Shown here piece after piece: positions 9,361-35,455 of a stretch of 64,000 nt of DNA (its first letter is position 1; each line of letters starts with the position of its first letter). This DNA comes from Alphaproteobacteria bacterium (GTDB taxonomy: Bacteria; Myxococcota_A; UBA796; GCA-2862545): positions 403,348 through 467,347 of the forward strand of contig JACKEO010000001.1 of NCBI GenBank assembly GCA_020632955.1, given 5' to 3'. Position numbers and translations under genes: made by a program. Under the pieces are notes generated by a model. It searched no databases. It worked only from the letters and a program-made list of their open reading frames with translations, and was not told the origin of the DNA.

Positions 9361-9398
9361 ACGTCCTCCCGGGCGGGTTGTACCGCGGCGGGCCCGAC

Positions 9399-10946: not shown

Positions 10947-12386
10947 ATGCCGGAAACCCCTGCGACCGCCTACGATGCGGTGCCCTACACCTCGCACGCC
11001 TACGAGCGCACCCAGCCCACCCGGCTCGCCGCCATGGCGCGCCTGTTCGGCGTCGAGGCGCCGGATCCGCGCACGGCCCGCGTGCTCGAGATCGGGTGTG
11101 GCCGCGGCGGCAACGTCGTCCCGATGGCCTCGGCCTCCCCCGAGGCGCGATTCGTCGGGCTCGACCTGTCGCGCGTGCAGGTGGACGAGGCGCAGGCGCT
11201 GGCCCGGCGCCTCGGGCTCACGAACCTCGACCTGCGCCACGCCGACATCCTCGACGTGGACGACGCCTGGGGCTCCTTCGACTACGTCATCGCCCACGGC
11301 ATCTGGTCGTGGGTGCCCGAGGCGGTGCGCGCCGCGATCCTCCAGCTCGTCCGCGACCGCCTCACGCCGCACGGCGTCGCCTACGTCAGCTACAACGTGC
11401 TCCCCGGCTGGCGCATGCGGGGCATGGTGGCCGACCTCATGCGCTACCACACCCGGCGCCTCACGGATCCGGCGGCGCGGGTGCACCACGCGCGCACCGT
11501 GCTGGAGTTCCTGGCGAAGGTGCGCGGCCCCGAGGTCCACACGCCCTACACCGACGCGCTGCACGAGGAGTCGTCCACCCTGGCCGGCCTCCCCGACGCC
11601 TACCTGCTCCACGACCACCTGGGCGAGGTCAACCACGCCGTCTACGTCCACGACTTCGTGCAGCAGGCCCAGGAGCACGGCCTCGCCTTCCTCTCGGAGG
11701 CCTCGCTGTCCGACATGATGCCGTCGGGCCTCGGCGCCGAGGCCACGGCCTTCCTGCAGCGCATCCCCGACCAGGTCGAGCGCGAGCAGTACCTCGACTT
11801 CCTCGTGAACCGCGCCTTCCGCGCCACGCTGCTGGTGCACGGCGAACGCACGATCTCCCGCAGGCTGGGGCCCACCTCCCTCGGGGGCCTCCACCTGCAG
11901 TGCGCCGGCACCTTCACCACCGAGGGTCCCCTGGCCGACCCCACGGTGGCAGGCACCCTGGAGCTGGCCGGCCGCACCTCTCGGACCTCCGCGCCCATCG
12001 CCAAGGCGGCGATGCACCACCTCTGCGCACGGTGGCCCGCCTCGGTGCCGTTCGAGGAGCTGGTCGACGTCGCGCGCGCCGAGGTGGGCAGCACGCGCCC
12101 CGTGGCCGACGACCGCGCCGACGTGGGCGGCGTGCTCCTCCAGGGCGTCCTGCACAGGCTGTTCCTGCTGCGCGCCGACCCCTCGCCGGCAGTGGCCGAC
12201 ACAGTGCCCGGCCGCCTGTTCCCTCCCGCCCGCCTGCAGATCGAGGACGGCGCCGACCTGGTGGTGAGCGCGCTCCACACCCACGTCCGCGTCGACCCCG
12301 ACGACGCCCGCACCCTGCTCGACCTCGACCGCATCTCGCCCGCAGCCCGGGCTCGCGTGGCGCGGATGGGGCTGCTGGTGGCGTAG
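10947..12386 (+). CDS. class I SAM-dependent methyltransferase with C-terminal methyltransferase regulatory domain
   Basis: ATG 10947 lies in the frame of ORF 9276..12386. SAM motif I is VLEIGCGRGGN. HGIWSWVPE and YVSYNVLPGW match the pattern I remember for the methyltransferase-regulatory-domain family. There is a long C-terminal extension. Confidence 0.85.
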   Translation: MPETPATAYDAVPYTSHAYERTQPTRLAAMARLFGVEAPDPRTARVLEIGCGRGGNVVPMASASPEARFVGLDLSRVQVDEAQALARRLGLTNLDLRHADILDVDDAWGSFDYVIAHGIWSWVPEAVRAAILQLVRDRLTPHGVAYVSYNVLPGWRMRGMVADLMRYHTRRLTDPAARVHHARTVLEFLAKVRGPEVHTPYTDALHEESSTLAGLPDAYLLHDHLGEVNHAVYVHDFVQQAQEHGLAFLSEASLSDMMPSGLGAEATAFLQRIPDQVEREQYLDFLVNRAFRATLLVHGERTISRRLGPTSLGGLHLQCAGTFTTEGPLADPTVAGTLELAGRTSRTSAPIAKAAMHHLCARWPASVPFEELVDVARAEVGSTRPVADDRADVGGVLLQGVLHRLFLLRADPSPAVADTVPGRLFPPARLQIEDGADLVVSALHTHVRVDPDDARTLLDLDRISPAARARVARMGLLVA

Positions 12387-12418
12387 ACACGCCGACGCGC
12401 CAGACCTCATCCACCACA

Positions 12419-12445
12419 CGAAACTAAACCATCGGTTAAGTTTCG
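12419..12445 (+). promoter_or_regulatory. imperfect inverted repeat in an A/T-richer leader directly upstream of abiEi (candidate operator/promoter)
   Basis: The sequence is CGAAACTAAACCATCGGTTAAGTTTCG. The outer arms CGAAACT / AGTTTCG are complementary. It ends 4 nt before the ATG at 12449 and sits in the only A/T-rich stretch of this intergenic region. AbiEi antitoxins are known to autoregulate through promoter inverted repeats. Confidence 0.35.
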
Positions 12446-12448
12446 CGC

Positions 12449-13015
12449 ATGACCCTCTCCGCCCCATCCTGGACCGCGCTGTACCAGACGGCCGACCTGC
12501 AGGCTGGCCACGTCACCACCCGCCAGGCCGCCGACGCGGGCTATTCGCCGCAGCTGATCCACAAGCACCTCGCGTCAGGTCGGCTCGTGCGCGTCCACCG
12601 CGGCATCTACCGCCTGGTCCACTACCCTTCGTCCGATCTCGAGGACCTCGTGGTCCACTGGCTCTGGAGCGGCCACGAGGGGGTGCTGAGCCACGAGACG
12701 GCGCTGTTCCTGCACGAGCTGTCCGACGTGCTCCCTGACACCGTCACCATGACGGTCCCCACGTCCTGGCGCCGACGTCGCCTCTCGGTCCCCGAGGGGC
12801 TTCGCCTTGAGTACGCCGACCTCGACGGGGTCGACCGCGCATGGCACGGACCGATCCCGGTCACCACGCCGCTGCGCACGCTCGTCGATGTCCACGCTGC
12901 CTCGATCTCCCCCGAGCACGTCGAGCGCGCGGCTGCCGACGGCGTCGCACGCGGACTGTTCACCGAAGGCGAGGTCGGCGCCATCCTCGCCGCCGACCAT
13001 GGGGCGCCGCGATGA
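12449..13015 (+). CDS. type IV toxin-antitoxin system AbiEi-family antitoxin
   Basis: The N-terminal wHTH pattern GHVTTRQAADAGYSPQLIHKHLASGRLVRVHRGIYRL is characteristic of the AbiEi N-domain. The stop overlaps the start of the downstream AbiEii gene (ATGA at 13012-13015). Confidence 0.8.
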   Translation: MTLSAPSWTALYQTADLQAGHVTTRQAADAGYSPQLIHKHLASGRLVRVHRGIYRLVHYPSSDLEDLVVHWLWSGHEGVLSHETALFLHELSDVLPDTVTMTVPTSWRRRRLSVPEGLRLEYADLDGVDRAWHGPIPVTTPLRTLVDVHAASISPEHVERAAADGVARGLFTEGEVGAILAADHGAPR

Positions 13016-13938
13016 GCAGGTACGCGCGTCCCCAGGCCTTCCGTGCAGCACTCGAGGAACGAATCCGGTCGCACACCCGCGTCACCGGTCGCAGCCACAA
13101 CCGGTTCCGACTGCGCCTCGTGATGGACAGGTTCGCCGCACGGGTGGTCCAGGTGTTCGGCGACCACGTCGTGCTCAAGGGGGGCATGGTTCTCGAGCTT
13201 CGCCTGCAGGGGGCTCGATCCACCCGCGACCTCGATCTCCACCTGACAGCACCGTCCGCCGAGACGCTCGCGCACCTCCAGGAGGCCGGACGCAGGGACC
13301 TCGGGGACCACCTGACCTTCGAGGTGGTCCCCGACCCGCGCCACCCCACGATCGACGCGGAGGGAATGCGGTACGAGGGACTCCGCTTCCGGGTGCAGGC
13401 GAGACTCGGGGGCCTTCGCTACAGCGACCCGTTCGGCGTCGATGCCGCCTTCGCAGAGCCGATGACGGGCGATCCCGACGAGATCCGCGGGTCGGACTTC
13501 CTCGGCTTCGCCGGCATCGACGCGCCATCCCTGCGCGTGTACCCGGTCGAGACCCACATCGCGGAGAAGCTCCACGCCTACACGATGCCGCGCTCCCGAC
13601 CGAACTCCCGAGTCAAGGACCTCCCCGACATCGCACTGCTGGCACGAGCCCGCGCACTCGACGCGAGCGAGCTGCGCTACGCGCTCCGCCAGACGTTCGA
13701 CCACCGAGGGATCCACCCGGTGCCTTCCCAGGTCCCCCCACCGGCGGAGGCGTGGCGCGTCCCGTACCGCCGCATGGCCGAGCAGGACCGGCTCCCCTGG
13801 TCCGACCTGGACGCCGTGCATCAGGCCGTCGCCAGCTTCCTGGACCCCGTGCTCGGCGGGGGGCGGGGGCGATGGACCGTCGAGACCTGGTCCTGGGACG
13901 ACGAAGGAGACCGCGCGCGCCACGATGGCACGGCCTAG
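13012..13938 (+). CDS. AbiEii/AbiGii-family nucleotidyltransferase toxin
   Basis: ATG 13012 lies in the frame of ORF 12841..13938. The NTase motif is LKGGMVLELRLQGARSTRDLDLHL (hGG...R.T.DhD). Size is about 308 aa. It is translationally coupled to AbiEi. Confidence 0.85.
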   Translation: MSRYARPQAFRAALEERIRSHTRVTGRSHNRFRLRLVMDRFAARVVQVFGDHVVLKGGMVLELRLQGARSTRDLDLHLTAPSAETLAHLQEAGRRDLGDHLTFEVVPDPRHPTIDAEGMRYEGLRFRVQARLGGLRYSDPFGVDAAFAEPMTGDPDEIRGSDFLGFAGIDAPSLRVYPVETHIAEKLHAYTMPRSRPNSRVKDLPDIALLARARALDASELRYALRQTFDHRGIHPVPSQVPPPAEAWRVPYRRMAEQDRLPWSDLDAVHQAVASFLDPVLGGGRGRWTVETWSWDDEGDRARHDGTA

Positions 13939-14006
13939 GAAGGCGAAGCCCGACCACCCCGCCGTCCAGTCCACATCCGCTCCCCCACTCCACCCCGGAC
14001 CTCCCC

Positions 14007-15422
14007 ATGCCCCCCGACGACTGGTCCCGCCGCGACGTCCACCGCGCGCTGCTCGGCACCCTGGTCGCCGGGTGCGCCCCCCGGGGCAGCGCCACCGGCG
14101 ACACCGACGTCCTCACCGACACCGACGGCCCCGCCGCCTCCGGCCGCCCCCGGGCCGTGATCCTCATCACCGCCGACGACCTGGGCTGGAAGGACGTGGG
14201 CGCCTACGGCCTCGACCTCGTGGCCACCCCGGCGCTCGACCGCCTCGTCGCCGAGGGCGCCACCTTCGACAGGGCCTTCGACGTCACGTCCACCTGCAGC
14301 TCCAGCCGCGCCACCTACGCCACCGGCCAGTACCCCCACACCCACGGCGTCACCGGCCTCGTCCACCGCCACCCCGAGCTGTCGCTGCCCTCCTCGCGTC
14401 CCCACCTCGCCCGCAGCTTCCAGGACGCCGGCTGGGCCACGGCCCTGCAGGGCAAGTGGCACCTGTCGCAGACCGAGCAGCCCCAGGCCTTCGGCTACGA
14501 CGAGCACCTCCCCACCGAGGTCGACCAGCTCATCCGCACCTCCGACGCCGCGCGGGCCTTCCTCGAGCAGCACCGCGACGGCGGCTTCTTCCTCGAGCTG
14601 AACTTCATGCAGACCCACCGCATCCCGCTGGTGGAGACGCTGCCGCAGGAGCCCGGCTTCGAGGTGGACGAAGGCATCGCCTCGCCCCCGGCGTGGTGGG
14701 GCCTGCCCGACCTGCCCGCCGTGCGCACCGAGGTGGCCGGGTACATGAGTCGCCTGGCCTGGATGGACGCCCTCATCGGCGAGGTGCTCGACGCGCTCGA
14801 CGACCTCGGCCTCGCCGACGACACCCTCGTCGCCTTCGTCTCCGACAACGGCCCGCCCTTCGCGGGGCTGAAGCTCACGCTCTACGACCGGGGCACGGGC
14901 ACGCCGCTGATGTTCCGCTGGCCCGCCGGCCTCACGCCCCAGCGCACCGACGCCCTCTGGAGCTCGGTGGACCTCGCCCCCACCCTCCTCGACCTGGCCG
15001 GCCTGCCCCCGCTGGAGGGTGCCCAGGGCCGGTCGTGGCGGCCCTTCCTCGAGGAGGGCGGCCCGTTCGCGCTGCCCGAGGCGATCTTCTCCGAGATGGA
15101 GCAGCACGGCGGTCCCCTCCCCGCCCGGGCGGTGCGCACCGCCACCCACAAGTACGTGGTGAACCTGTCCGACAAGCCCTGGGGAGGCGCGGGCCAGGGC
15201 TGGAAGGACGAGGTGATGGACCTGCCCGGCCAGACCTGGGACGAGCCCCGACCGCGCGAGGAGCTCTACGACCTCACGGCCGACCCGCTGGAGCGCACCA
15301 ACCTCGTGGACGATCCGGGGAGCTCCGCCGTGCTGGCCGACCTGCGGGCGCGGCTGGCGGCGCACCTGGCGGCCAGCGAGGACCCGCGGGCGGGTGACGT
15401 GGCGGCCCGGCAGGCGGGGTGA
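14007..15422 (+). CDS. sulfatase-family lipoprotein (arylsulfatase-like) with twin-arginine-like leader
   Basis: ATG 14007 lies in the frame of ORF 12807..15422. The leader SRRDVHRALLGTLVAGC is an RR motif plus lipobox. Family motifs include ILITADDLGW, TSTCSSSRATYATGQYPHTHG (sulfatase signature position), GKWHL and FVSDNGP. Confidence 0.85.
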   Translation: MPPDDWSRRDVHRALLGTLVAGCAPRGSATGDTDVLTDTDGPAASGRPRAVILITADDLGWKDVGAYGLDLVATPALDRLVAEGATFDRAFDVTSTCSSSRATYATGQYPHTHGVTGLVHRHPELSLPSSRPHLARSFQDAGWATALQGKWHLSQTEQPQAFGYDEHLPTEVDQLIRTSDAARAFLEQHRDGGFFLELNFMQTHRIPLVETLPQEPGFEVDEGIASPPAWWGLPDLPAVRTEVAGYMSRLAWMDALIGEVLDALDDLGLADDTLVAFVSDNGPPFAGLKLTLYDRGTGTPLMFRWPAGLTPQRTDALWSSVDLAPTLLDLAGLPPLEGAQGRSWRPFLEEGGPFALPEAIFSEMEQHGGPLPARAVRTATHKYVVNLSDKPWGGAGQGWKDEVMDLPGQTWDEPRPREELYDLTADPLERTNLVDDPGSSAVLADLRARLAAHLAASEDPRAGDVAARQAG

Positions 15423-15430
15423 GCTGCGTT

Positions 15431-15452
15431 CGCGCGGCACCTCGACCGCGCG
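15431..15452. terminator. GC hairpin between convergent genes (possible bidirectional terminator)
   Basis: CGCGCGG-cacctcga-CCGCGCG lies between the sulfatase stop (15422) and the methyltransferase stop (15457). There is no U-tract. Confidence 0.25.
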
Positions 15453-15456
15453 CGCC

Positions 15457-16050
15457 TCACGCCGCGGCCTTCCTGCCGTGGAGGGTGTAGGCCCAGCGCC
15501 ACCCCAGCGGCGCGGACGGCACGAAGCCGTGGGCGCGCAGCTTGTCGGCCACCGCCTCCGCCGACTCGAAGTCCGGGTCGGGGTGGTGCTCGGTGATCGC
15601 GATCACGCCGTCGTCCTTCAGCACCCGGTGGGCTTCCTCGAGGAAGGCCGCCTGGTCCGCGATCTCGCCGAAGACCGTCACGAGGAAGACGGCGTCGAGA
15701 CAGGCATCGTCGAACGGGAGCGCGGTGCCTGCCGCCACCTGCAGGCGGGCGTTGTCGATGCCCGCCGCCTCCAGCCGACGGGCGCACTTCGCGAGCATCT
15801 CGGGCTGCAGGTCGAGCAGGGTCAACGTGCCCTGCGGCACCTTCCTGGCGGCGGCCACGCTGTAGTGCCCCGAGCCCGGACCGACCTCGAGCACGTGCGC
15901 GTCCGGCCCCACCGGCAGCCGCTCGGCGACCGTGCTCGGCGGCATGATCCATCCCCGACCGGGCAGGTCGAGGATCCAGCTCATCTCGTGGGGGAAGACC
16001 CCCACCCCGAAGGCGCGACGCAGGATGCCGACGTGGCGGGAGAGGTCCAT
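15457..16050 (-). CDS. class I SAM-dependent methyltransferase (small, about 197 aa)
   Basis: The ATG at 16050 is preceded by CAGGAG. Motif I is VLEVGPGSGHY. The post-I acidic residue is in LLDLQPEM, and FDDACLDAVFLVTVFGEI follows. Confidence 0.8.
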   Translation of the reverse strand: MDLSRHVGILRRAFGVGVFPHEMSWILDLPGRGWIMPPSTVAERLPVGPDAHVLEVGPGSGHYSVAAARKVPQGTLTLLDLQPEMLAKCARRLEAAGIDNARLQVAAGTALPFDDACLDAVFLVTVFGEIADQAAFLEEAHRVLKDDGVIAITEHHPDPDFESAEAVADKLRAHGFVPSAPLGWRWAYTLHGRKAAA

Positions 16051-16088
16051 GGCGCGCTCCTGGGGGCCCCCGGAAGGCCGCGTCGGCT

Positions 16089-17747
16089 TCACCGCTCCAG
16101 CCACCACACCAGGGACTCGTAGCCCCCCTGGTAGGGCGTGGCCGTGCCCTCCACGGCGCCGCCGGGGCCGCGCACCGTGGCCACGTCGCCGATCGACCCG
16201 CGCACCAGGATGCGGCCGTCCGGAGACTCGCTCGCCGACAGGTCGAAGACCTCCTCGGTGGGCGTGGTGACCGTGCGCACCCACTCCAGCGCGCCGTCGT
16301 CGGGCCGGTGGCGCGCGAGGACGCCGATCGACCGCGCGGCGTCTCCCGCCACGGTGACCGCGACGCTGCCGTCCCGATCGAGGATCGACGTGCCGTACTG
16401 CCAGGAGCTGCCTGCGTAGAAGGCGCCGTCCGGCCCGAAGGACGGGTACGACAGCAGGATCTCCTGGTCGGAGGCGTGCGGCCTCACCCACATCAGGTCG
16501 CCGTCGAACGACCACACCGACGCCCAGCTCATCTCGCCCTCGTTGGGCATGGGCGTGGCGGCGATCACGGTCTCGTGGGCGCCACCGAGGTCCCAGGTGG
16601 TGGGGGTGTTCGGGCCGAAGGTGAGGAAGCCCACGCGCCCGGGCCCCTTCGCGAGGGCCCCCACCGACGTCCAGCGGTCGGTGGTGACCTCACGCGCCCA
16701 CGTGAGGCTGCCGTCGGCGGCGAAGCGGGCCAGGAGCGTGCCCCAGGTGGCAGCGGTGGCGGTGGCGGCGTCGCCCGGCGAGGCCTCCATCCCGTCGGCG
16801 GCGTTGAACAGCGCGATGCACGAGCCGTCCTCGAGGGCGGCCACGCCGTACAGGCCACGGATGGGCGAGTTCCCGCTCGCGATCGCGAAGGTGAGCGTGC
16901 GCGTCAGCGCGCCGTCGCGGTCCACCCAGCCCAGCCAGGAGCCGTTCGACACCGCGGGCAGCGTCTGGGTGCCCCCGGGGCCCGTGAGCACCGCGTCGTC
17001 GACGTAGTAGGCGCCCACGCAGCCCGACCCGTCCGCACGCAGGTCGGCCACGGGCGAGCCCTCGAAGGTGCTGGTGCTGTCCTGCACCAGGGCCCACAGG
17101 GGCTTCAGGTCGGCATCCAGGGCGATGATCGCGCCGGCGCGCCCGTCGCTGGTGGCGTCGATCACCAGCTCGTCCTTGCCGCCCGGCGCCACGACGAGGC
17201 GGTCGTCGTTGAACCAGGTGGTGAGCAGCAGGCGGTCGCCGTTCCCGGCCAGGGTGGTGGTGTAGCCGCGCGCACCGAAGTCGATCACGAGCTCGCCGAC
17301 CACCGCACCCTTGGCGTCGAGCTTGAGCACGTGGCCGCCGTAGCCGCTGGTGGGCGTGGTGAAGACCCCGCTCGTGAGGCCCAGATCGGCGTTGCGGTGG
17401 GTGCCGGCCACGAAGGCCGTCTCGCCCAGGAACACCGCGTTGCCCGGGCCCGAGGCGATCGTGTCCGGCACCGTGGACACCGACGTGGTGCGGGTGTTCG
17501 TGGGCGGCTGGTAGACGCAGTCCTCGCCCACGGCCTGGTGGTAGGGCAGGCACGCGGGGCCCACGTCGGTGTCGGGGTCGGTGTCGACCGCCGTCTCCGT
17601 GTCGTCCCCGCGCGCGGTGTCGTCGTCCGACGTGCCGTCGGTGTCCCCGTCGGTGTCGTCGGGGCCGTCCTTGGCCTCGTCCACCCCCGTGGCGCGGCTG
17701 CAGGCGACGGCGAACAGGATGGGCCAGAGCAGTCGGGACATCGGCAC
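16089..17747 (-). CDS. lipoprotein, probable beta-propeller/beta-rich fold (hypothetical)
   Basis: MPMSRLLWPILFAVAC is a signal peptide plus lipobox. An acidic D/T/G-rich tether follows (DGPDDTDGDTDGTSDDDTARGDDTETAVDTDPDTD), then about 450 aa of Gly/Asp/Thr/Val-rich beta-like sequence. Confidence 0.75.
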   Translation of the reverse strand: MPMSRLLWPILFAVACSRATGVDEAKDGPDDTDGDTDGTSDDDTARGDDTETAVDTDPDTDVGPACLPYHQAVGEDCVYQPPTNTRTTSVSTVPDTIASGPGNAVFLGETAFVAGTHRNADLGLTSGVFTTPTSGYGGHVLKLDAKGAVVGELVIDFGARGYTTTLAGNGDRLLLTTWFNDDRLVVAPGGKDELVIDATSDGRAGAIIALDADLKPLWALVQDSTSTFEGSPVADLRADGSGCVGAYYVDDAVLTGPGGTQTLPAVSNGSWLGWVDRDGALTRTLTFAIASGNSPIRGLYGVAALEDGSCIALFNAADGMEASPGDAATATAATWGTLLARFAADGSLTWAREVTTDRWTSVGALAKGPGRVGFLTFGPNTPTTWDLGGAHETVIAATPMPNEGEMSWASVWSFDGDLMWVRPHASDQEILLSYPSFGPDGAFYAGSSWQYGTSILDRDGSVAVTVAGDAARSIGVLARHRPDDGALEWVRTVTTPTEEVFDLSASESPDGRILVRGSIGDVATVRGPGGAVEGTATPYQGGYESLVWWLER

Positions 17748-26598: not shown

Positions 26599-27228
26599 TC
26601 AGGCAGGCGCGGTGAGCACGGAGCCCATGCGGGCCAGGCAGGCCTCGAAGACCGTCAGAGGCTCCTGACCCGACCCGGCAGCACCCTGCAGGGCCAGGCG
26701 TCCTGCGGCCACCACCGTCGCGGCCGCCAGGGCCACCGCGTGGCTGTCGGCCGGCACGCCCCAGCGCGCCGCGATGACGGCACCCAGCGCGGCCTCCGCG
26801 TCCACGGAGACCTGGATCCACACGGCCCGCAGCCGCTCCGTGCCCGTCAGCACGTCGAGGAGGACCGCCGCGTCCTGGGCGTGGACGAGGCCCAGCACCT
26901 CGGCGTGCGCCTGCCTCACCGCGTCGGTCAGGCTGCCCTCGCCACACAGCGCGTCCACCCGCGCCACCACGTGGTCGAGCCCCGCCGTGAGGTAGGGCCT
27001 CACGGCATCCTCCTTCCGCGGGAAGTAGCGGTAGAAGGTCCGCTCCGACACCCCCGCGTGTTCGGCGAGCTCCCGGATGGTGAAGTCGCTGCGTCCGTGC
27101 TGCAGGAGGAGGGCCACCACCGCCTGGGAGGCCGCGAGCACGGCCTGGTCCCGGCTGCTCGGGGCGTCGAACCGCGGCAGGGGGGTCCCTTGGGAGGCGT
27201 CGGGCGTGGGCTCGGGGTGCGTGGGCAT
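26599..27228 (-). CDS. TetR-family transcriptional regulator
   Basis: The ATG at 27228 is preceded by GGGGAGAGG. The HTH is FTIRELAEHAGVSERTFYRYFPRKEDAV. Confidence 0.88.
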   Translation of the reverse strand: MPTHPEPTPDASQGTPLPRFDAPSSRDQAVLAASQAVVALLLQHGRSDFTIRELAEHAGVSERTFYRYFPRKEDAVRPYLTAGLDHVVARVDALCGEGSLTDAVRQAHAEVLGLVHAQDAAVLLDVLTGTERLRAVWIQVSVDAEAALGAVIAARWGVPADSHAVALAAATVVAAGRLALQGAAGSGQEPLTVFEACLARMGSVLTAPA

Positions 27229-27260
27229 CGACCTCTCCCCGGCTCCGTCCACGGCAGATG

Positions 27261-27275
27261 TGGCAGTTTCTGCCA
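27261..27275. promoter_or_regulatory. perfect palindrome TGGCAGtttCTGCCA in the TetR/di-iron divergent intergenic region (candidate TetR operator)
   Basis: 6-3-6 inverted repeat located 33 nt from the TetR start and 32 nt from the divergent ATG at 27307. Confidence 0.45.
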
Positions 27276-27306
27276 GTGCGTGGCATGGAGGCCGGAGGAG
27301 GTCCCC

Positions 27307-28161
27307 ATGTCGACGGCCCTGCGGGCGATGGCGCCCGCGCAGCGGATCCGGTTCCGCGCAGCCTACCTCACCCACCTGCGCGCACGCGACGGCGTGCCCG
27401 ACCTTCGCGAGCGCAGCTTCGACGTGCGCGAGCGCTTCTTCGAGCGCATCGACGCGGAGCCGGTGCGGTGGGAGGGCGCCTCTCCCGTGGATCCGGACGT
27501 GTTCGCCCGCAACCACGTGGCACCGGCACCCGAGCCGGGGCTCGACGCGGCCACGCTCTGGGCCCTGGCCACCGCCAAGGTCAACCGCGCCGAGCAGTTC
27601 GGCGTGGAGATGAAGATCGACCACGTGGGCGACGAGGTCACGAACGTGGACGACCCCTACACCTACATCCAGGTGGAGGAGACCTACCACACCCGCATCC
27701 TGCGGGACGTGCTGGCCACCCTGGGCCTGCAGATGGAGGTGGCCACCCCCCAGGCGGGCACGCGCCTGCTCATCCGCGGCATGGTCCACATGCCCGAGGG
27801 CCTGGCCAACGTGGCCATCCTCTGCGGCGAGATCTTCGGCGTGGCCGTCTTCTCCCTGCTGCTCGACAAGGCCCGCGAGCTCTTCGCGGCCCAGCCCGTG
27901 GTCCTCGAGCGGATGGAGGAGCTCTTCGCCCAGATCCTCGTGGACGAGGTGGGCCACGTCCACTTCGTGCGCAGCACCCTGGGCCCCGCGGGCATCCGCC
28001 TCGCCCGCTGGATGCTGCCGGTGGTCGCGAACGCCACGCTGCGCGACATCCCCGAGCTGGTGGCGCTCTTCGGCCGTGAGGCGATCCTCACGCGGGTGCT
28101 GGCGGCCGACGTGGATGGCGCGGCGGCGGGGTACGAAGACCGGATGGTGGTGGAGGGGTGA
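27307..28161 (+). CDS. ferritin-like/di-iron-carboxylate-type protein (possible AurF-like oxygenase)
   Basis: The ATG at 27307 is preceded by GGAGGAGG. Two E-x-x-H motifs about 90 aa apart (VEETYHTRIL and VDEVGHVHF) lie in helical-looking sequence. Divergent from a TetR gene. Family assignment is tentative. Confidence 0.7.
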   Translation: MSTALRAMAPAQRIRFRAAYLTHLRARDGVPDLRERSFDVRERFFERIDAEPVRWEGASPVDPDVFARNHVAPAPEPGLDAATLWALATAKVNRAEQFGVEMKIDHVGDEVTNVDDPYTYIQVEETYHTRILRDVLATLGLQMEVATPQAGTRLLIRGMVHMPEGLANVAILCGEIFGVAVFSLLLDKARELFAAQPVVLERMEELFAQILVDEVGHVHFVRSTLGPAGIRLARWMLPVVANATLRDIPELVALFGREAILTRVLAADVDGAAAGYEDRMVVEG

Positions 28162-28194: not shown

Positions 28195-30090
28195 TCACCG
28201 TTTGCGGGTGGGGATGCGGGCGAGGAGGCCGATGCTCGCACCAACGCCCGCGGCGAACCTCCACTCGACGGGTGCGGAGTTGAGCGCAGCCGGCGCATCG
28301 AACAAGCCACCTGCGGGGTAGAACGTGGTGAACTCGTCCTGACGAACGAAGGGGCCGGAGGACAGGCCCGTCCAGTTCTGGAAAGACTGCCCCGCCACGG
28401 GGACGTCGATATCGACGCGCGCGAACACGGAAAGGTAGCGCCACACATCGGCCTCCAACCCAGCTCCGGCGCGAAGAACGACGAGGTTGTTGCCCGCCAT
28501 CCACGCGGCAACGTAGCTGTCCGGGAGCGGTGAGATCACCGAAGCGATGCTCCGGCCATCCCAGTATGCCCACCCGATACTTGCGGTGGGACGTACCAGC
28601 TTCGCCGGGAGCGGTGCGAAGGTCACGCGGTTGCCGACGTACCAGCTGGGGTCGCTGATGACCTGATCGAGGGAGGCCGGGTCGGGAATCTCGCGTTGCG
28701 GCGCTCCATCGATTTCGGAGAAGAACTGCCATCGGAAGGGAGAGGCAAGCACCCCCACGACAAAGGTCACGTCGAGCCATGGCAGGACGCCGTACCCGAG
28801 CTCGAACTCACCCGCGGCCACGAGATCGTTCACGTTCAGCTGGAGCGCGCTCTGCTGCAGGATGTCCCCACTACGCGGGCTTTGCTGGAACTCCTTGGGG
28901 GTCCCATCCCGCAGGAGCAGGCCCGTATGGTGCGCCTGTCCCCAGGGGCCCTGGCTGAATCGGAACGCGGCGCGCACCAGCACCTGCGCACGCCTTCCTT
29001 GGTCCGGCCGGTGCGCGGCCGCAGCGGATGCGGTCTCTCGCATCGGGGATGACCTAGGCGCGTCCAGGCTCGCGCCCGCGAGCGGCCGGACCTCGGTGCG
29101 CGCGAGGACGACCTCGTTACTGACGAGCACGAGGTCCAGGCTCCATCGCTCGGACGCGTGCGCGGGGAGCTGCTCGACCAGCGTCCACGTGCTGTCGTCC
29201 ACGCGCGACATCCAGCCGAGGTGCCGCCCGCCCTCCTCTACCGCCACGCGTGCTGTCGACGGGACCTCCGAGGACCGCGCCGTGAGCGTGTACGGCTCCC
29301 CGACGCGCGCCGCCTCCAGCTCGACCTCGACGGTGAGGGTCACGCCCTCGAGCGCCACCTCCACTTCCACCTCGGCCTGGTCGGCCTGCACCAGCCGCGC
29401 CCGCGCGAACCGCGTGGTCTCGGCGTCCACCTGCCGCACCTCGAAGACCACGTTCCCCGGGTGGCGTGAGGACCAGTGGAGCACCACGAGCTCGCGGAAG
29501 CCCATGCGCTCCACGCGCGCCACGGCCTCGTCGCGGTGGGCCGGATCGAGCAGCAGGAGCCCGTCGTCGCCCAGCACCGAGGGATCCTCGGCGGCCTGGC
29601 TGCCCTCGGGGAGCGCGCCCAGGAGAGCCGACAGGATCCGGTCCTGGCGCTCCCAGATCCACCCGGGCGCCGACGTCTCCGGGTCCACGAGGAAGAGCAC
29701 CGGGCGCTCGCGTGCCAGCCGCAGCCGCACGATCTGCGCCAGTCGGTCGCCGGCCAGCTCGGGCCAGGTCTCCTCGGAGGGCTCCACCACCACCACATCG
29801 CCCGGCACGACCGGCTCGCCGTCCAGGCGCGCCTCCACCGCCTCCACGAGCGCGGCAGGCGCCTCACGGCGCGTGAGGCAGCCCAGCAGCTTCTCGTCCA
29901 CCTCGTTCGTCTCCACGAGGAGGAGGAGTTGCGCCATTGGCGTGCGGTCCACGAGGTCCATCAGCGTGCCGCACCGCAGGGTGTCGGCGGCGCTCGCCAC
30001 CGTGGACGTGAGGAGCCCCACCAGGACGCCGACGCTGCGCCCCCGCAGCACGAGCCGTCCCCCCACGCTCGACCGTGCCCCCGTCGACAT
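28195..30090 (-). CDS. secreted hypothetical protein with beta-barrel-like C-terminal third
   Basis: The ATG at 30090 gives MSTGARSSVGGRLVLRGRSVGVLVGLLTSTVASAAD, a signal peptide. The C-terminal about 280 aa show alternating hydrophobic and aromatic residues (WYVGNRVTFAP, IGWAYWDG, LVVLRAGAGLEADVWRYLSVFARVDIDV). Confidence 0.68.
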   Translation of the reverse strand: MSTGARSSVGGRLVLRGRSVGVLVGLLTSTVASAADTLRCGTLMDLVDRTPMAQLLLLVETNEVDEKLLGCLTRREAPAALVEAVEARLDGEPVVPGDVVVVEPSEETWPELAGDRLAQIVRLRLARERPVLFLVDPETSAPGWIWERQDRILSALLGALPEGSQAAEDPSVLGDDGLLLLDPAHRDEAVARVERMGFRELVVLHWSSRHPGNVVFEVRQVDAETTRFARARLVQADQAEVEVEVALEGVTLTVEVELEAARVGEPYTLTARSSEVPSTARVAVEEGGRHLGWMSRVDDSTWTLVEQLPAHASERWSLDLVLVSNEVVLARTEVRPLAGASLDAPRSSPMRETASAAAAHRPDQGRRAQVLVRAAFRFSQGPWGQAHHTGLLLRDGTPKEFQQSPRSGDILQQSALQLNVNDLVAAGEFELGYGVLPWLDVTFVVGVLASPFRWQFFSEIDGAPQREIPDPASLDQVISDPSWYVGNRVTFAPLPAKLVRPTASIGWAYWDGRSIASVISPLPDSYVAAWMAGNNLVVLRAGAGLEADVWRYLSVFARVDIDVPVAGQSFQNWTGLSSGPFVRQDEFTTFYPAGGLFDAPAALNSAPVEWRFAAGVGASIGLLARIPTRKR

Positions 30091-30329
30091 GGATGGTGTC
30101 CCCCGCCGCCAGCGCCTCGCGCCGCCTCGGCCATCCGGCCGACGCCACGAGGATAGTCGGCCGGAGGCCACGAGGCCCGCCATCGGCGCTGGCACGGCCC
30201 GACCCCCTCGGGCAGGCTCGGCGGAGCTGTCAGATCGACGCCCGCTCGTCGTCCCAGACAGCATCGACCGGAGCCCACCTGCCCTCCCCCTTCCGCCCCA
30301 CCCCCTTCGCCCGCACCCTCCTCCGCCGG

Positions 30330-31265
30330 ATGCTCCGCGCCCGCGCCACGGAGCTCCACGGCGACCCCGACGCCCGCGTCTCCCCGCTGCTCCCGCAGTG
30401 GCAGGAGGGGCTGCACCCCGCGGTGCGCGCTGAGGCCGAGACCCTCGTGGCGTCGGGCGCCCTCCCCCTGCACGACCACGTCCACGCCCTGCACAGCTCC
30501 CAGGCCTTCGCGCTGAACCTCTTCTTGCCGGCGCGCGTGGGCGATCGCACGGCACTCTCGGCCTTCGTGTCCGACGCCCTGGGCCGGGCGGTGTCGATCG
30601 TCGACGTGGAGCTGGAGTTCATCGGCTCGGGCGACCTCCTCGCCGAGATCCCCGGCGCTGTGCCGGGACCCGACGACCGCGTCACGCAGGCCGACGTGGC
30701 CCTGCACCTGCAGGACGAGGCCGGGCGCCGCGGCCTGCTGCTCGTGGAGGTGAAGCTGTCGGAGGGGGGCTTCACCGCCTGCGGCGGCGCAGGCAGTCGG
30801 GGCAACCGCGACAGGGCCCCCTGCGAGGACGCCGCGATCTTCCTGGCCGACCCGGCACGATGCTACCTCCGCCGTCCCCGCCACGCGGCACGCGACCGTC
30901 GCTACTGGACCCTCTTCGCCGCGCACCACGGCAGCGTCGCCGCCGCCTTCCCGGGCGCGGCCCCGACCGGTCCCTGCCCCTTCGCCGGAGACTGGCAGCA
31001 GCCCATGCGCAACCACGCACTGGCGCTGGCCGCCGTGGAGGCGGGCCTCGCGGACTTCGCCGCCGTGGCCCTGGTGCACCACGACCACAACCCCGACGTG
31101 CCGGGCCCGTGGGACGCCTACCGTGAGGCGGTGGCCGCACCCGAGCTGCTCCAGCGCTGGCCCGCCTCACGCCTCCTCACGGCGCTCGACGCCACGCTCC
31201 CGGCCGCACCCTTCCCGGTCGGGGCGTGGCTGCGCGAGCGGTACCACCTCCCGGAGACCCCATGA
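30330..31265 (+). CDS. predicted PD-(D/E)xK-fold nuclease-like protein (hypothetical)
   Basis: ATG 30330 lies in the frame of ORF 30075..31265. Motifs are HALHSSQAFALNLF, QADVALHLQDEAGRRGLLLVEVKLSEGGF (D...E-x-K) and QQPMRNHALA. The stop overlaps the next start (ATGA). Confidence 0.62.
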   Translation: MLRARATELHGDPDARVSPLLPQWQEGLHPAVRAEAETLVASGALPLHDHVHALHSSQAFALNLFLPARVGDRTALSAFVSDALGRAVSIVDVELEFIGSGDLLAEIPGAVPGPDDRVTQADVALHLQDEAGRRGLLLVEVKLSEGGFTACGGAGSRGNRDRAPCEDAAIFLADPARCYLRRPRHAARDRRYWTLFAAHHGSVAAAFPGAAPTGPCPFAGDWQQPMRNHALALAAVEAGLADFAAVALVHHDHNPDVPGPWDAYREAVAAPELLQRWPASRLLTALDATLPAAPFPVGAWLRERYHLPETP

Positions 31266-32266
31266 CCCAGGACTTCGACCGCCTGGTGTGCGCGCCCGTC
31301 CGCGCCCACCTCGGCCGCCCCGTGCGTCTTCCCTCGGCGGGGGACTGGCGGGTGGACACGGTGCGCGGCGTGCCCACCCTCACGCTCACGCTGCCTCACG
31401 CCACCCTCGGTCGGAACCTCCAGACCACCCACGCCGCCGCACCGGCCTTCCTCGCCTGCTTCGGCTGGTGGCACGGCCGGCTCACGGGCACCGACCCGGC
31501 CCTCCACCTCGACATCGTGGGCGACGAGCCCGCCGACCCCTCCGCGCGACGTCACGCGCGCCGTGCCCGCATCGCCCTGGAGGCCCTCACGGTCGCCCTC
31601 GGCGACCGGCTCACCACCACCGGCCTCGAGGCCGACCCCTGGCCGCGCGTCCCCGTCTTCAACGCTCCGAAGGAGGCCCGAGGCAGCGAGCTCGGCGGGG
31701 GCGGACGGGAGCACCAGGTGGAGGTGCAGCTCGCCGACGAGCCGGAGCACGCGCGCACCCTGCCCGTCGACGACGTGCGCATCGACGGCTTCCAGCGCCA
31801 GCTCCCGCTGGGGCTCTTCGAGGGCACGGTGGCCCACGACGCCCGGTGGACCCCGGGGAACAAGGCCCAGGCCGACCTGTGGGCCACCTCGCCGGACGGC
31901 CGCGTCTTCCACCTCTTCGAGCTGAAGGTGGCCGACAACGACGGACTGGGGATCCTGCCCGAGCTGCTCTGCTACCTGTGGCTGGTGCACCGGGCCCGCG
32001 TGGGGCTGCCCGACGGTCGCCGGCTCACGGGGGGAGGCGCGGGCCTGGACGCCGCGCGCCGCGCCGAGCGTCTCGTGGGATGGACGCTGGCGCCCGACCT
32101 CCACCCCCTGCTCGGCACCCCCGACGCCACGCCGCTCTCGTGGATCGCCGAGGGGCTGCGTCCCCACATGGACCTCGGGATGCTCGGCTTCCACGACCCC
32201 GGCGGGCCGCGAGGCTTCGGCGGCTGGCGGCCCGAGCGCACCTGGCGGTCGTGGGCCGCGGCCTAG
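31262..32266 (+). CDS. hypothetical protein: unknown N-terminal half plus C-terminal PD-(D/E)xK-like nuclease domain
   Basis: ATG 31262 lies in the frame of ORF 31226..32266. EHQVEVQL...FQRQLPLGLFEG...KAQADLWATSPDGRVFHLFELKVADNDGLGILPELLCY fits the E...D...E-x-K...Q/Y layout of restriction-endonuclease-fold domains. Confidence 0.62.
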   Translation: MTQDFDRLVCAPVRAHLGRPVRLPSAGDWRVDTVRGVPTLTLTLPHATLGRNLQTTHAAAPAFLACFGWWHGRLTGTDPALHLDIVGDEPADPSARRHARRARIALEALTVALGDRLTTTGLEADPWPRVPVFNAPKEARGSELGGGGREHQVEVQLADEPEHARTLPVDDVRIDGFQRQLPLGLFEGTVAHDARWTPGNKAQADLWATSPDGRVFHLFELKVADNDGLGILPELLCYLWLVHRARVGLPDGRRLTGGGAGLDAARRAERLVGWTLAPDLHPLLGTPDATPLSWIAEGLRPHMDLGMLGFHDPGGPRGFGGWRPERTWRSWAAA

Positions 32267-35200
32267 GCGACGGCCCGGCCCTTCGACATCACCCAGGCGG
32301 GCACGGGGCGTTCCAGCGTCCACACGATCTGCATGGGACGCGCGCCGCCGTGACGCTCGTAGTGGGCCCACCCGAGGCAGGTGAAGGGCAGGGTCTCGCC
32401 GCGCTCGTCCTTGGGGCGCTCCCGCACCAGGAGCAGCACCCGGCTGCCGCGGGCGTCGTGCTCCACGTACCGTCGGCCCACGGGGGTGCCGTCGTGCGTG
32501 TGGTTCTGGGACTCCCAGTGGAAGCGCGTGGGCGAGATCGGGTAGTCCGCGTAGCGGATCGAGGGGGTGAAGGCGTCGTCGCTCTTGTCGAGCGTGACGA
32601 AGAAGGCGTCGGTGGCGGCCTCCTCCACCCACACCGGGCCCTCACGCGACTCACGCAGCCGTCCCTTCGCCGTGGCGCCGAAGGCCGCCACCAGCTCGGC
32701 GCGGGTGTACGTGGCGTGGCTGCACATGGGCAGGGCGGGATCGCCCAGGTCCCGCGGCGTGTGCCGCACACGGTCGCGGAGCACGCCCAGCAGCTCGGCC
32801 AGCTCCTCGCGGGCCACGTCGTGGGACCAGAAGGCGTCGAGCTCCTCCTGGAGCTCCACCAGCGGTCGCCGCCGATCGCCCACCGACACCCAGAGCATGC
32901 GCGCCAGCGCGAGGTCTCGGGGCGTGAGGCGGTCGACGCGCGGTGCGTTGGACGCCATGAGCCAGCGCCGCCACGTGGTGAGGCGGGGCTCGTCGTCCAC
33001 GTGGCGCAGGCGGCCCACCCGCTTGCGGAGCGCCAGATCCTCGGCCGTGGACTCGCGACGCTCGAAGCCCGCGTCCCGCCGTAGCAGCGACCAGGAGCGT
33101 CCGGTCCCCGTCTGGGGCTGGAAGACGTCGTCGAGGTCCGCGTCGGTGTGCCGCAGCAGGTCGGCCAGACCCGTCCGCGGTCCGAGCCGCTGCAGGTCGT
33201 GCACCAGCAGGCGCCAACCCGCCGAGCCCACCACCTTCTGGATGCCGTCGAGCACGAGCCGCTCGGCCTGCTCCTCCAGCTGGATGGCACACCCCGGCGG
33301 CAGTCGGGGGAAGCCCCGCTCCACCTGGTCGCGCACCTGCTTGCGCGTGCCCCCGAGCAGCGCGCGGTACCGCACCTCGTAGCGGTAGTCCTGGTGCACC
33401 TGCCCCACGAGGTCGAGCACCACGAGCTGGCTCTTGCCCGGGTGCCGCCGCAGGCCACGCCCGAGCTGCTGCAGGAAGACCGTGGCGCTCTCGGTGGGAC
33501 GGAGGAAGAGCACCGTGTCGACCTCGGGGAGGTCCACGCCCTCGTTGAACAGATCCACCGTGAACACCAGCTGCAGGGCGCCGGACCGCAGATCCCGGAT
33601 CGCCGCGCGACGGTCCTCACGCGGGGTGCCTCCGTGCAGCGCCACCGCGGCCAGGCCGTGCTCACGGCTCACGCGGGCCATGAGCTCGGCGTGCCCCACG
33701 CCCACGCAGAAGCCCAGCGCGCGCATGCGCCGGGGGTCGGCCACGTGGCGCTCCACGGCCTGGAGCACCTGCCGCGCGCGGAGGTGGTCGCCCGTGTAGA
33801 GCCGATCCAGCTCGCCCACGTCGAGACGACCGCGACGCCATGCGACCGCCGCCGAGCCGGGGTCGTGCACGCCGAAGTAGTGGAAGGGCGCCAGCAGGCC
33901 CTCCTCCAGCGCGTCCCAGAGGCGGATCTCGGCGGCGATGCGGTGGTCGAACCAGTGGAGCACCGAGCGGCCGTCCGCACGCTCGGGGGTGGCCGTGAGG
34001 CCCAGCAGGATCGTGGGGGCCAGCCGCTGCAGCAGCGCGTCGTAGGTGGGGGCGGCCGCGTGGTGGAACTCGTCCACCACCACCATGTCGAAGGCCGCGG
34101 CGTCGAGGGCGGCCACCGCGTCGGCGCCCAGGCTCTGGATCGAGGCGAAGACGTGCCGCCCCCGCTCGGGACGCGCGCCGTCCACCAGCAGCTCGCCGAA
34201 GCCGGGGTCCTTGAGCACGGTGCGGAAGACCAGCAGCGCCTGCTCGAGGATCTCCTTGCGGTGGGCCACGAAGAGCAGGCTGTCCACCGTGCCCTCGGCC
34301 CGCAGCCGGCGGTAGTCGAAGGCCGAGACCCAGGTCTTGCCCGTGCCGGTGGCCGCCACGACGAGGTTGTGGGCGTGGCCGTGGGCGCGCTCGGCCTCCA
34401 GCGCGTCCAGCACGCGCTCCTGGTGGCGCTTGGGTGACGCATCGATCACCAGGAAGGCCTGGTCGAGCGCCCCCGACTCGCCGCGAGCCCGCGACAGCGA
34501 GCGCTGCAGCCGCTCGGCGTGGGCCTCGGGGTGGTGGTCCTCGGGCCCCAGGGCCTCCCAGAACTGGGTGAAGGCCTGGTCGAAGCGCTCCAGCAGCGCG
34601 GGCGTGGCCACCTCGGTCACCCGCACGTTCCACTCGGCGCCGTCGGTGAGCGCCGACCGGGAGAGGTTCGACGAGCCGATGTAGGCCGTGGACAGGCCGC
34701 TGGCGCGGTGGAAGAGCCAGGCCTTGGCGTGCAGGCGGGTGCCGTCCTCCTCGTACGCGAGGCGCACCCGGGCCCCCAGGCGGCAGAGCTCCTTCACGGC
34801 ACGGGCGTCGGTGGCGCCCACGTAGGTGGAGGCCACGAGGCGCAGCTCCCCCCCGCGCTCGACGAAGCGCCGAAGTGCCTGCTCCAGCAGCTTGAACCCG
34901 GAGAACTTCAGGAAGGCGACGATGGCGTCGACCCGGTCGGCGCTGGCGATCTCGCGCTCCAGCTCGTGGAAGAGCGAGACGTCCTGGGCCCCGTTGAAGA
35001 GCAGCGCCGGGTGCACCAGCCCGTGCTCGGGCCGCGGCGGCGGCACCGGCGTGGCGAGCCCTGGGTTCTCGGGTGCCACCCAGAGCAGGGCGTCCCGGGT
35101 CGCGGCGGGCGTGTCGGCCGCGAGGTCGACCACCTCGGCGGGCAGCGTCTCGAGGACCCGGCGCACGAGGTCCACGCGCGCGTCGATGCCACCCTCCGCG

Positions 35201-35385
35201 GGGAGCCCGGCCAGCGCCGCCCTCAGGAGCCCCGTGACGTGCCGGGCGAGGGCCTCGTCCAGCCAGTCGAGCTGCTGCGCCTTGCGCTCCACCTTCCGCC
35301 CGGCCGCCGCGAGGCGCGCCAGCGCCTCCTCCACCGCCTGCGTGATGAGCCGCTCGTGCAGACCCGCCGCGAGCGTGTGGCGCAT
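32263..35385 (-). CDS. SauUSI-type restriction enzyme homologue: PLD-family nuclease + SF2 helicase/ATPase + DUF3427-like C-terminal domain
   Basis: The ATG at 35385 is preceded by GAGGGGGA. PLD (HKD) motif: LHAKAWLFHRASGLSTAYIGSSNLS. Walker A: VAATGTGKT. Motif II: VVDEFHH. Motif III: GLTATPER. Motif VI: FLQQLGRGLRR. The about 300-aa C-terminal region (YTRAELVAAFG...FFVTLDKS...RFHWESQ...) is like DUF3427. Confidence 0.9.
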   Translation of the reverse strand: MRHTLAAGLHERLITQAVEEALARLAAAGRKVERKAQQLDWLDEALARHVTGLLRAALAGLPAEGGIDARVDLVRRVLETLPAEVVDLAADTPAATRDALLWVAPENPGLATPVPPPRPEHGLVHPALLFNGAQDVSLFHELEREIASADRVDAIVAFLKFSGFKLLEQALRRFVERGGELRLVASTYVGATDARAVKELCRLGARVRLAYEEDGTRLHAKAWLFHRASGLSTAYIGSSNLSRSALTDGAEWNVRVTEVATPALLERFDQAFTQFWEALGPEDHHPEAHAERLQRSLSRARGESGALDQAFLVIDASPKRHQERVLDALEAERAHGHAHNLVVAATGTGKTWVSAFDYRRLRAEGTVDSLLFVAHRKEILEQALLVFRTVLKDPGFGELLVDGARPERGRHVFASIQSLGADAVAALDAAAFDMVVVDEFHHAAAPTYDALLQRLAPTILLGLTATPERADGRSVLHWFDHRIAAEIRLWDALEEGLLAPFHYFGVHDPGSAAVAWRRGRLDVGELDRLYTGDHLRARQVLQAVERHVADPRRMRALGFCVGVGHAELMARVSREHGLAAVALHGGTPREDRRAAIRDLRSGALQLVFTVDLFNEGVDLPEVDTVLFLRPTESATVFLQQLGRGLRRHPGKSQLVVLDLVGQVHQDYRYEVRYRALLGGTRKQVRDQVERGFPRLPPGCAIQLEEQAERLVLDGIQKVVGSAGWRLLVHDLQRLGPRTGLADLLRHTDADLDDVFQPQTGTGRSWSLLRRDAGFERRESTAEDLALRKRVGRLRHVDDEPRLTTWRRWLMASNAPRVDRLTPRDLALARMLWVSVGDRRRPLVELQEELDAFWSHDVAREELAELLGVLRDRVRHTPRDLGDPALPMCSHATYTRAELVAAFGATAKGRLRESREGPVWVEEAATDAFFVTLDKSDDAFTPSIRYADYPISPTRFHWESQNHTHDGTPVGRRYVEHDARGSRVLLLVRERPKDERGETLPFTCLGWAHYERHGGARPMQIVWTLERPVPAWVMSKGRAVA

Positions 35386-35455
35386 GCGCGATCCCCCTCG
35401 CGCACCTGGTAGCGCCGAGATCGGCCGCGCGGCCACCCGCGGCGAACCGCTCGCC

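Follow-up and report, generated by a model that had tools for sequence, protein, structure and literature searches.

Several kinds of nuclease system invite comparison with the gene pair described here. Heterodimeric restriction endonucleases such as BbvCI (subunits R1 and R2), BtsI and BsrDI have two different catalytic subunits and come with cognate methyltransferases, while Shedu (SduA, DUF4263) is a single-gene homo-oligomer with a variable N-terminal domain. Our subject is a pair of overlapping genes, ORF1 and ORF2, on the + strand of a 64,000-nt stretch of DNA from a metagenome-assembled genome (MAG); we call the whole of that stretch the window and number all positions within it. The ORF1 product belongs to the REase-ARP family, which was described in the setting of conflict systems centred on ADP-ribosylglycohydrolase (ARG). 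In the account by Iyer et al. 2022 (PMC9503650), these systems join the ADP-ribosylglycohydrolase with a rhodanese-phosphatase, TY-Chap2 is described, and the REase-ARP domain is proposed to be a rapidly evolving conflict-system effector that targets nucleic acids. The "ARP" of the Pfam name presumably abbreviates this ARG/rhodanese-phosphatase context.

Neither the ORF1/ORF2 pair nor the superfamily to which ORF2 belongs was found to be described in the searchable literature. We put the chances at about even that the two proteins are subunits of one heteromeric nuclease with a defence role that does not depend on a methyltransferase. The components of this proposal do not carry the same weight: that the two proteins form one functional unit is highly likely, that they have nuclease chemistry is probable from their motifs and structural models, and that their role is in defence, for which the evidence is genomic context, is somewhat favoured.

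The pair resembles each of the described systems in part. Like BbvCI, BtsI and BsrDI, it would consist of two different PD-(D/E)xK-type subunits encoded by adjacent genes, each with its own centre and each presumably responsible for one strand, but the known enzymes have a methyltransferase and the pair has none. There is also no sequence relationship; neither family profile found anything significant among the PDB sequences, and the only match was one at E=0.85 for ORF2. Like Shedu, the pair would be a defence nuclease that lacks a methylase, and ORF2, like SduA, has an N-terminal region followed by a putative C-terminal PD-(D/E)xK domain; in contrast to Shedu, the N-terminal half of ORF2 is conserved and ORF2 is obligatorily paired. 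Restriction-modification systems of types I-III differ in that the pair has no cognate methyltransferase, specificity subunit or ATPase subunit. With type IV restriction as the comparison, the absence of a methylase and the presence of a type IV neighbour (discussed below) are suggestive.

The two genes and their predicted products

ORF1 (30330-31265, + strand, H6732_01895) encodes 311 aa plus a stop as annotated, and ORF2 (31262-32266, + strand, H6732_01900) encodes 334 aa plus a stop. As the window is 74% GC, long open reading frames occur in every frame. These two are nevertheless genuine genes and not chance frames of GC-rich DNA, judging from the GC content by codon position (0.90 in ORF1 and 0.91 in ORF2 at the third position, and low at the second in both), from the identity of their products with the proteins annotated for the MAG at NCBI, and from their conserved homologues. 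The coding-frame signal changes exactly at the junction between them. An earlier reading of this DNA, made from the letters alone and called the original prediction here, had noted two + strand frames of these lengths overlapping by ATGA at 31262-31265; the sequence confirms this, and every peptide that was quoted is present (HALHSSQAFALNLF, QADVALHLQDEAGRRGLLLVEVKLSEGGF and QQPMRNHALA in ORF1, EHQVEVQL and KAQADLWATSPDGRVFHLFELKVADNDGLGILPELLCY in ORF2).

At the junction (31253-31265, + strand), the ATG of ORF2 and the TGA of ORF1 share the ATGA, and a GGAG within the 3' end of ORF1 (31253-31256) lies 5 nt ahead of the ORF2 start. This layout supports the proposal that the two genes are translationally coupled, and the 4-bp overlap recurs in related loci, including independent metagenome contigs. 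The annotated start of ORF1, on the other side, is probably wrong. Homologues begin about 17 residues before the annotated ATG at 30330, and a family-conserved N-terminal peptide (SPFRPTPFARTLLRR; PFARTLLRR) is encoded in frame upstream of it, both of which argue for an earlier start. The sole nearby in-frame candidate is a CTG at 30279, 51 nt upstream, which follows a GGAG (30270-30273) and a 5-nt spacer; the probable true 5' end (30270-30329, + strand) would add 17 codons and make ORF1 a protein of 328 aa.

ORF1 matches Pfam families PF22558 (REase-ARP; E=1.6e-18, 67.7 bits against a cut-off of 27) and PF20796 (PDDEXK_13; E=1.5e-14, 54.5 bits against a cut-off of 27), and from these scores it is clearly a member of both and a PD-(D/E)xK nuclease-fold protein. 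The original prediction had been unable to place either protein in a named family, which for ORF1 no longer holds. At least 128 homologues of ORF1 were found; among the 120 listed, all have at least one of the two Pfam domains and nearly all have both. An alignment of 111 sequences shows S56, S57, E96, E106, D122, E145, C151, C165 and C216 to be invariant and E140, K142 and C178 to be nearly so. The predicted catalytic signature, D122-x17-E140-x-K142 (30693-30755, + strand), has D122 at 30693-30695, E140 at 30747-30749 and K142 at 30753-30755. These residues are located on strands 121-129 and 134-142 of the AlphaFold model (pLDDT 97.3), whose core runs alpha(57-70)-beta(88-97)-beta(121-129)-beta(134-142)-[Cys insert]-alpha(223-237)-beta(243-250).

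The cysteine-rich insert (30780-30977, + strand) separates the E-x-K strand from the next core helix and contains C151, C165, C178 and C216. It is modelled at pLDDT >95, and all four cysteines are retained in the fusion proteins described below; they are a candidate metal site. A Foldseek search of the ORF1 model against the PDB gave no match at E<=1e-3. PD-(D/E)xK enzymes dominate the insignificant matches, among them AdnA nuclease, PaqCI, MspI, EcoO109I, Cas4-like ACE1 and MspJI. No family in PADLOC-DB v2.0.0 matched ORF1 at E<=1, and an NCBIfam scan added nothing useful.

REase-ARP is a named but purely computational family, and ORF1 stands outside its original, ARG-centred setting. We considered whether the pair might be the effector arm of such an anti-ADP-ribosylation system, built around an ADP-ribosylglycohydrolase and a rhodanese-phosphatase. 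The ORF1 score far exceeds the family threshold, the D...E-x-K residues are retained, and actinobacterial members of PF22558 are fused to TY-Chap2 in the manner described in PMC9503650. These fusions are confined to distant actinobacterial members, however, and in the Pfam scans of nine neighbouring ORFs of the window there is neither an ARG nor a rhodanese-phosphatase, and no Nudix/WYL regulator, Macro/NADAR domain or TY-Chap chaperone. The ORF1 clade is instead stand-alone and coupled to a second nuclease-like protein, typically a D..ExK protein of about 300 aa, a pairing that is not described in the available part of PMC9503650. The likelihood of an ARG-centred role here appears close to negligible.

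ORF2 is harder to place. It has no family in PADLOC (E<=1) or NCBIfam, and Pfam returned only a sub-threshold match of the N-terminal half to NA-iREase3 (E=0.012) and an unrelated one to Deltaretro_Tax (E=0.16). Of 5.8 billion clustered proteins, 33 are close homologues. When the family profile was run against 1.84 billion representatives, 809 clusters (defined at 50% identity) reached E<=1e-3, of which 543 passed E<=1e-10, and most matched over the full length. Large as it is, the superfamily of ORF2 has no counterpart in Pfam, NCBIfam, PADLOC or the PDB.

Within an alignment of 31 ORF2 sequences, D205 and E220 are invariant and K222 nearly so, giving the signature D-x14-E-x-K; E150, E154 and E234 are also invariant or nearly so there. 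Across 107 representatives, down to about 20% identity, the invariant or nearly invariant residues are Q54, H98, R101, N134, E150, E154, Q180, P182, G184, D205, E220, K222, E234, Y238 and H281. The predicted active site (31709-31963, + strand) comprises E150 (31709-31711), E154 (31721-31723) and D205 (31874-31876), with the remainder at 31919-31963: E220 (31919-31921), K222 (31925-31927) and E234 (31961-31963). The acidic/lysine triad whose conservation had been singled out for checking is thus present in both proteins, in the 111 ORF1 sequences as in the 107 ORF2 representatives. The AlphaFold model of ORF2 has a pLDDT of 94.1 and a pTM of 0.93. An alpha-beta-beta-beta-alpha-beta core topology was read from its secondary-structure string, DSSP assigning helix 149-159 (E150, E154), strands 178-187, 203-209 (D205) and 215-221 (E220, K222), helix 231-247 (E234) and strand 270-277.

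Motif and topology, and not a significant database match, are the grounds on which we take ORF2 to be very probably a divergent, catalytically competent PD-(D/E)xK-type protein. Foldseek found no PDB match to the model at E<=1e-3. The best match in BFVD is borderline (E=1.3e-3, an unnamed viral protein), and the next ones (E>0.01) include several annotated PD-(D/E)xK, VRR-NUC and restriction proteins. The claim that both proteins have a nuclease fold therefore holds for ORF1, by Pfam scores above cut-off, and in part for ORF2, where the triad and the model core are as expected but no significant profile or structure match was found. The profile and Foldseek searches that had been suggested similarly brought out a family for ORF1, but neither a family nor a significant PDB fold match for ORF2. 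An internal duplication in ORF2 was looked for and not found, and homology between ORF1 and ORF2 beyond the shared motif was tested for and not detected.

The N-terminal half of ORF2 (about residues 1-135) had been described as a variable domain, in a layout reminiscent of Shedu or NucS. Since Q54, H98, R101 and N134 are nearly invariant across the 107 representatives, this half is instead conserved, together with the C-terminal half. Searches of Pfam and PADLOC at E<=1 gave no Shedu or NucS match, both libraries being assumed to contain those models.

Pairing, fusion and exchange of partners

To a scan of one genome per species (185,579 species genomes) we owe 79 loci with relatives of ORF1. 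An ORF2 homologue is present in ten of these, and in all ten it is directly downstream of the ORF1 homologue; co-conservation of the pair, and the location of several related loci among defence genes, had both been put forward for checking and are both seen. Pairwise identities among ORF1 proteins correlate with those among ORF2 proteins (r=0.93, Mantel p ~2e-4, 11 loci). There are also natural fusions of an N-terminal REase-ARP part to a C-terminal ORF2-like part, P0163 (680 aa) and P0168 (705 aa), which are 43% identical over their full length. The P0163 cluster has four members from JGI, ENA and NCBI, so that the fusion is no assembly error but has been maintained in evolution. Conservation does not extend beyond the two genes: ten neighbouring window proteins were searched for by tblastn, and none had a match in the 79 loci.

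So close an association could also be that of a toxin-antitoxin-like or addiction module, in which a toxic nuclease is restrained by its co-translated partner until a stress or infection signal arrives, with abortive infection as the outcome. A tight two-gene operon with a 4-bp overlap, strict co-evolution with partner-specific subclades of ORF1, a host genome unprotected by any methylase, and a mobile, sporadic distribution would all suit such a module. Both proteins, however, keep full catalytic signatures across deep divergence, which would be unusual for a pure inhibitor; at 311 and 334 aa, they are also large. The existence of stable fusions, moreover, suits a holoenzyme better than a releasable toxin-antitoxin pair. 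We consider an addiction module unlikely.

ORF2 is not the only partner of ORF1-type proteins. Among 66 non-actinobacterial ORF1-type loci, 44 have a protein of about 300-330 aa encoded directly downstream, and these partners fall into four sequence clusters: type A (26 loci), type B, which is the ORF2 family (10 loci), type C (6 loci) and type D (2 loci). A D...E-x-K motif of its own marks each cluster, and Pfam covers none of them. Partners of types A, C and D, of about 310 aa, have in common an N-terminal "LDV.LR.d.v.vYy.G" motif; example genes of these three types are at 8903-9835 of locus L007, 8921-9850 of L019 and 965-1906 of L005. ORF1 homologues group by partner type, the nearest neighbour having the same type in 40 of 41 cases, and it is the proteobacterial, myxococcal and chloroflexal ORF1 clade that pairs with the D..ExK proteins of about 300 aa. 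We considered types A and C as remote ORF2 homologues, but hhalign aligned only the D...E-x-K strand region (E ~2e-4, probability <=49%) or nothing. As that link runs through the catalytic strands only, types A and C are treated as families separate from ORF2. The type A partner had only two borderline PADLOC matches, both to PDC-S11 (E ~0.008-0.01).

Exchange is seen from the ORF2 side as well. In a distant ORF2-like clade, a beta-CASP metallo-beta-lactamase (MBL) nuclease of about 416-440 aa is encoded directly up- or downstream in 56 of 80 loci. This is the largest clade sampled, with at least 492 metagenome matches. The gap between the two genes is about -4 to +17 bp, and the solved structures nearest to the MBL partner are RNase J and TTHA0252. 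These modules resemble the window pair in belonging to the same superfamily (the HMM matches run the full length, and the conserved residues are shared) and in their tight two-gene layout; they differ in the MBL/RNase J-like fold of the partner, in a gene order that varies and in being far more numerous. One sampled ORF2-like member (locus L090) follows a NERD-SF1 helicase inside a type I restriction-modification island. Most often, therefore, an ORF2-type protein has a nuclease as its neighbour, although not always one of the same fold. At E<=0.01, PADLOC had no match for the distant ORF2-like proteins, their MBL partners or the type C and D partners.

Two further ORF2-like fusions were seen. 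P0260 (590 aa) has a weak uracil-DNA-glycosylase (UDG)-like N-terminus (Pfam E=0.0015), which is below the Pfam threshold, has no PDB support and is a lead only. P0298 (770 aa, a single sequence) ends in a metallo-beta-lactamase domain whose type differs from that of the beta-CASP partners. Separately, a Myxococcales MAG (palsa_1104; locus L178, the same as L024 and L179) has five nuclease-type genes in a row at 6695-11832, encoding a beta-CASP MBL, a 390-aa D..AEVK protein, a LEM-3-type GIY-YIG nuclease, a REase-ARP protein and a type-A partner. The MBL in this row is 44.6% identical to the MBL partner of the ORF2-like gene in locus L131.

The identities of these partners bear on another possibility, that the pair is an accessory of DNA repair or recombination in which two nucleases process ends or lesions, one subunit cutting and the other trimming. 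Beta-CASP MBL nucleases and NERD-SF1 helicases also serve in nucleic-acid repair and processing, and the superfamily partners include a beta-CASP MBL related to RNase J and TTHA0252 and a NERD-SF1 helicase. The UDG-like N-terminus of P0260 would point the same way, as would the absence of a methylase or immunity gene from the operon. Weighed against this are the lack of PDB support for the P0260 match, an extremely sparse and patchy distribution (the 33 close homologues and ten of 79 loci given above), and neighbourhoods that are variable and unconserved, with restriction, integrase and defence genes nearby. A repair role seems to us rather unlikely.

A possible dual-nuclease mechanism

If ORF1 and ORF2 are the subunits of a heteromeric defence nuclease, they would be co-produced from one transcript by way of the 4-bp overlap and would probably combine in a complex that has two unlike active sites. 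ORF1 would supply the REase-ARP centre (D122, E140, K142) and the four-cysteine insert, and the C-terminal half of ORF2 a second PD-(D/E)xK-type centre (E150/E154, D205, E220, K222, E234). Over the superfamily as a whole, the ORF2-type protein stays constant, and the partner nuclease, whether REase-ARP, beta-CASP MBL or NERD-helicase, is interchangeable. The constancy of ORF2 beside swapped nucleases suggests that it may provide target recognition or licensing, and perhaps one strand cut, with further cleavage or degradation left to the partner. As there is no self-protecting methylase, the complex would presumably attack something absent from the host, either modified DNA or DNA with aberrant ends or structures; failing that, it would act suicidally, in an abortive response.

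The context that speaks for defence includes the type IV enzyme abutting the pair, the DUF3427 helicase and HIT-helicase-S24 protein of locus L086, the integrase upstream in L081, and the rare, scattered occurrence of the family among neighbours that are not conserved; the published conflict-system proposal for REase-ARP points the same way. Another related pair has a kinase-WD40 protein next to it. In a set of 65 neighbour ORFs from related loci, the PADLOC matches include mREase_IV (twice), PDC-S41, PDC-M01A, PtuA, a PD-T4-6-like kinase and a Dcm-type cytosine methylase. These counts, which have no background control behind them, may suggest an enrichment of defence genes near the pair. Several other observations also weigh against a defence nuclease. 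Several loci are flanked by ordinary metabolic genes, including L088 and much of the window itself. ORF1, ORF2 and the relatives tested have no PADLOC matches, and the fold assignment of ORF2 lacks a significant Pfam profile or solved-structure match. Beta-CASP and NERD-helicase partners would suit repair or RNA processing just as well. Finally, a pair of seemingly active nucleases without a methylase needs some mechanism of self-control, and none was identified.

A broader proposal, which we offer tentatively and regard as more doubtful than not, is that the whole ORF2 superfamily (about 809 clusters) provides the constant recognition or licensing subunit of modular dual-nuclease immune systems. 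The effector would be swapped between folds (REase-ARP with a four-cysteine metal site, beta-CASP MBL, NERD-helicase), and the systems would be methylation-free, with a trigger distinct from those of restriction, Shedu and Hachiman. The overall logic of a nuclease pair with swappable partners in variable, defence-rich neighbourhoods is familiar, and this is one among many predicted nuclease modules.

Should the pair prove to be a defence system, it would add a methylase-free nuclease complex with two active sites to the mechanisms of bacterial immunity and would extend REase-ARP beyond the ARG-centred context. A function would also be gained for an unannotated superfamily with hundreds of clusters in environmental bacteria, the members examined being mostly tied to nuclease partners of varying fold. 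Families with a constant subunit and swappable effectors are productive entry points to new sensing mechanisms, and a heteromeric nuclease with two catalytic centres could be a starting point for novel nicking enzymes or for enzymes that depend on modification. Interest would be modest if the pair turned out to be a repair or addiction module.

Neighbouring genes and distribution

The pair abuts a type IV restriction homologue, as the original prediction had stated. This gene (32263-35436, - strand) encodes a SauUSI-like type IV methyl-directed restriction enzyme (PADLOC mREase_IV, E=7.7e-241; Pfam PLDc_2, ResIII, Helicase_C and DUF3427). It is convergent with ORF2, and the two stop codons overlap in the palindrome CTAG (32263-32266), leaving no intergenic space. 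No terminator-like site or hairpin was found between the two genes; with convergent stops that overlap, transcription of ORF2 and of the type IV gene must collide. The type IV gene is like the pair in being a nuclease defence gene without a methylase, in the same island. It differs in encoding a single polypeptide (PLD nuclease, SF2 helicase and DUF3427), in being unrelated in sequence and in not being co-conserved.

Could the pair and the type IV enzyme together make up a three-gene restriction system? The abutting convergent genes, with their overlapping stops and no terminator between, might suggest it, as might the DUF3427 helicase about 5.4 kb upstream of the pair in locus L086 and the two mREase_IV matches among the 65 neighbour ORFs. 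On the other hand, SauUSI-type enzymes act as single proteins, and tblastn with the window type IV protein matched nothing in the 79 genome loci, most pair loci being without such a gene. Convergent orientation also means that the pair and the type IV gene are not co-transcribed. A three-gene system is very unlikely.

On the other side of the pair lies a divergent orphan gene (28195-30051, - strand; 618 aa, H6732_01890) with no Pfam or PADLOC match. Among the 5.8 billion proteins only one relative could be detected, a paralogue encoded by the same MAG (52% identity across 44% of the length), and the 3' part of the gene has the lowest GC of the region (0.68). Beyond it, a TetR-family regulator is encoded on the - strand within the region 26599-28161. 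As its N-terminal helix-turn-helix maps inside a longer spurious ORF, the real gene is at about 26599-27150, seemingly divergent from a + strand gene at about 27200-28161. A Pfam scan of nine neighbouring window ORFs recognised only the TetR regulator, the type IV enzyme, a sulfatase and YhhN. The operon consists of two genes only, with no methyltransferase, specificity subunit or ATPase in it; the neighbour Pfam scans agree with the earlier statement that none is co-encoded. No tRNA, flanking repeat, Rfam element, promoter or terminator was found around the pair in the window.

The distribution of the pair is very rare and phyletically scattered, with ORF2 in only ten of the 79 REase-ARP loci. 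This patchiness raises the question of whether the pair might be a mobile-element endonuclease, of homing or transposition type, that drives its own dissemination. Locus L081 has an integrase about 1.8 kb upstream of its pair, and an rve transposase lies beside a type-A pair in L176, but neither integrases nor transposases accompany the pair consistently, the window has neither flanking repeats nor a tRNA, and no copy of the pair was found in the viral contigs of IMG/VR, the phage genomes of INPHARED or the plasmids of PLSDB. A mobile-element endonuclease is highly improbable.

The MAG that provided the window is labelled "Alphaproteobacteria bacterium", a label at odds with the 74% GC of the window. 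Many of the closer relatives of its pair come from MAGs labelled Myxococcota or Deltaproteobacteria, or from doubtful ones (some are "Enterobacterales" bins of about 70% GC), and the taxonomic labels of these bins look unreliable.

Two of the related loci have unusual surroundings. In L084 (JGI Ga0556162_0004779, 1260-17084), near-identical copies of a three-gene operon stand on both sides of the pair, encoding proteins of 427 and 650 aa, neither with a Pfam match, and one of about 860 aa with ResIII/Helicase_C; the flanking copies could be a duplication or an assembly repeat. The same locus has a 100-aa REase-ARP fragment at 923-1225. In L086, a gene at 2914-7245 (- strand), between the DUF3427 helicase and the pair, encodes a 1443-aa protein with HIT/DcpS_C and SF2 helicase parts and a weak match to Peptidase_S24, an unusual architecture in a defence-like neighbourhood.

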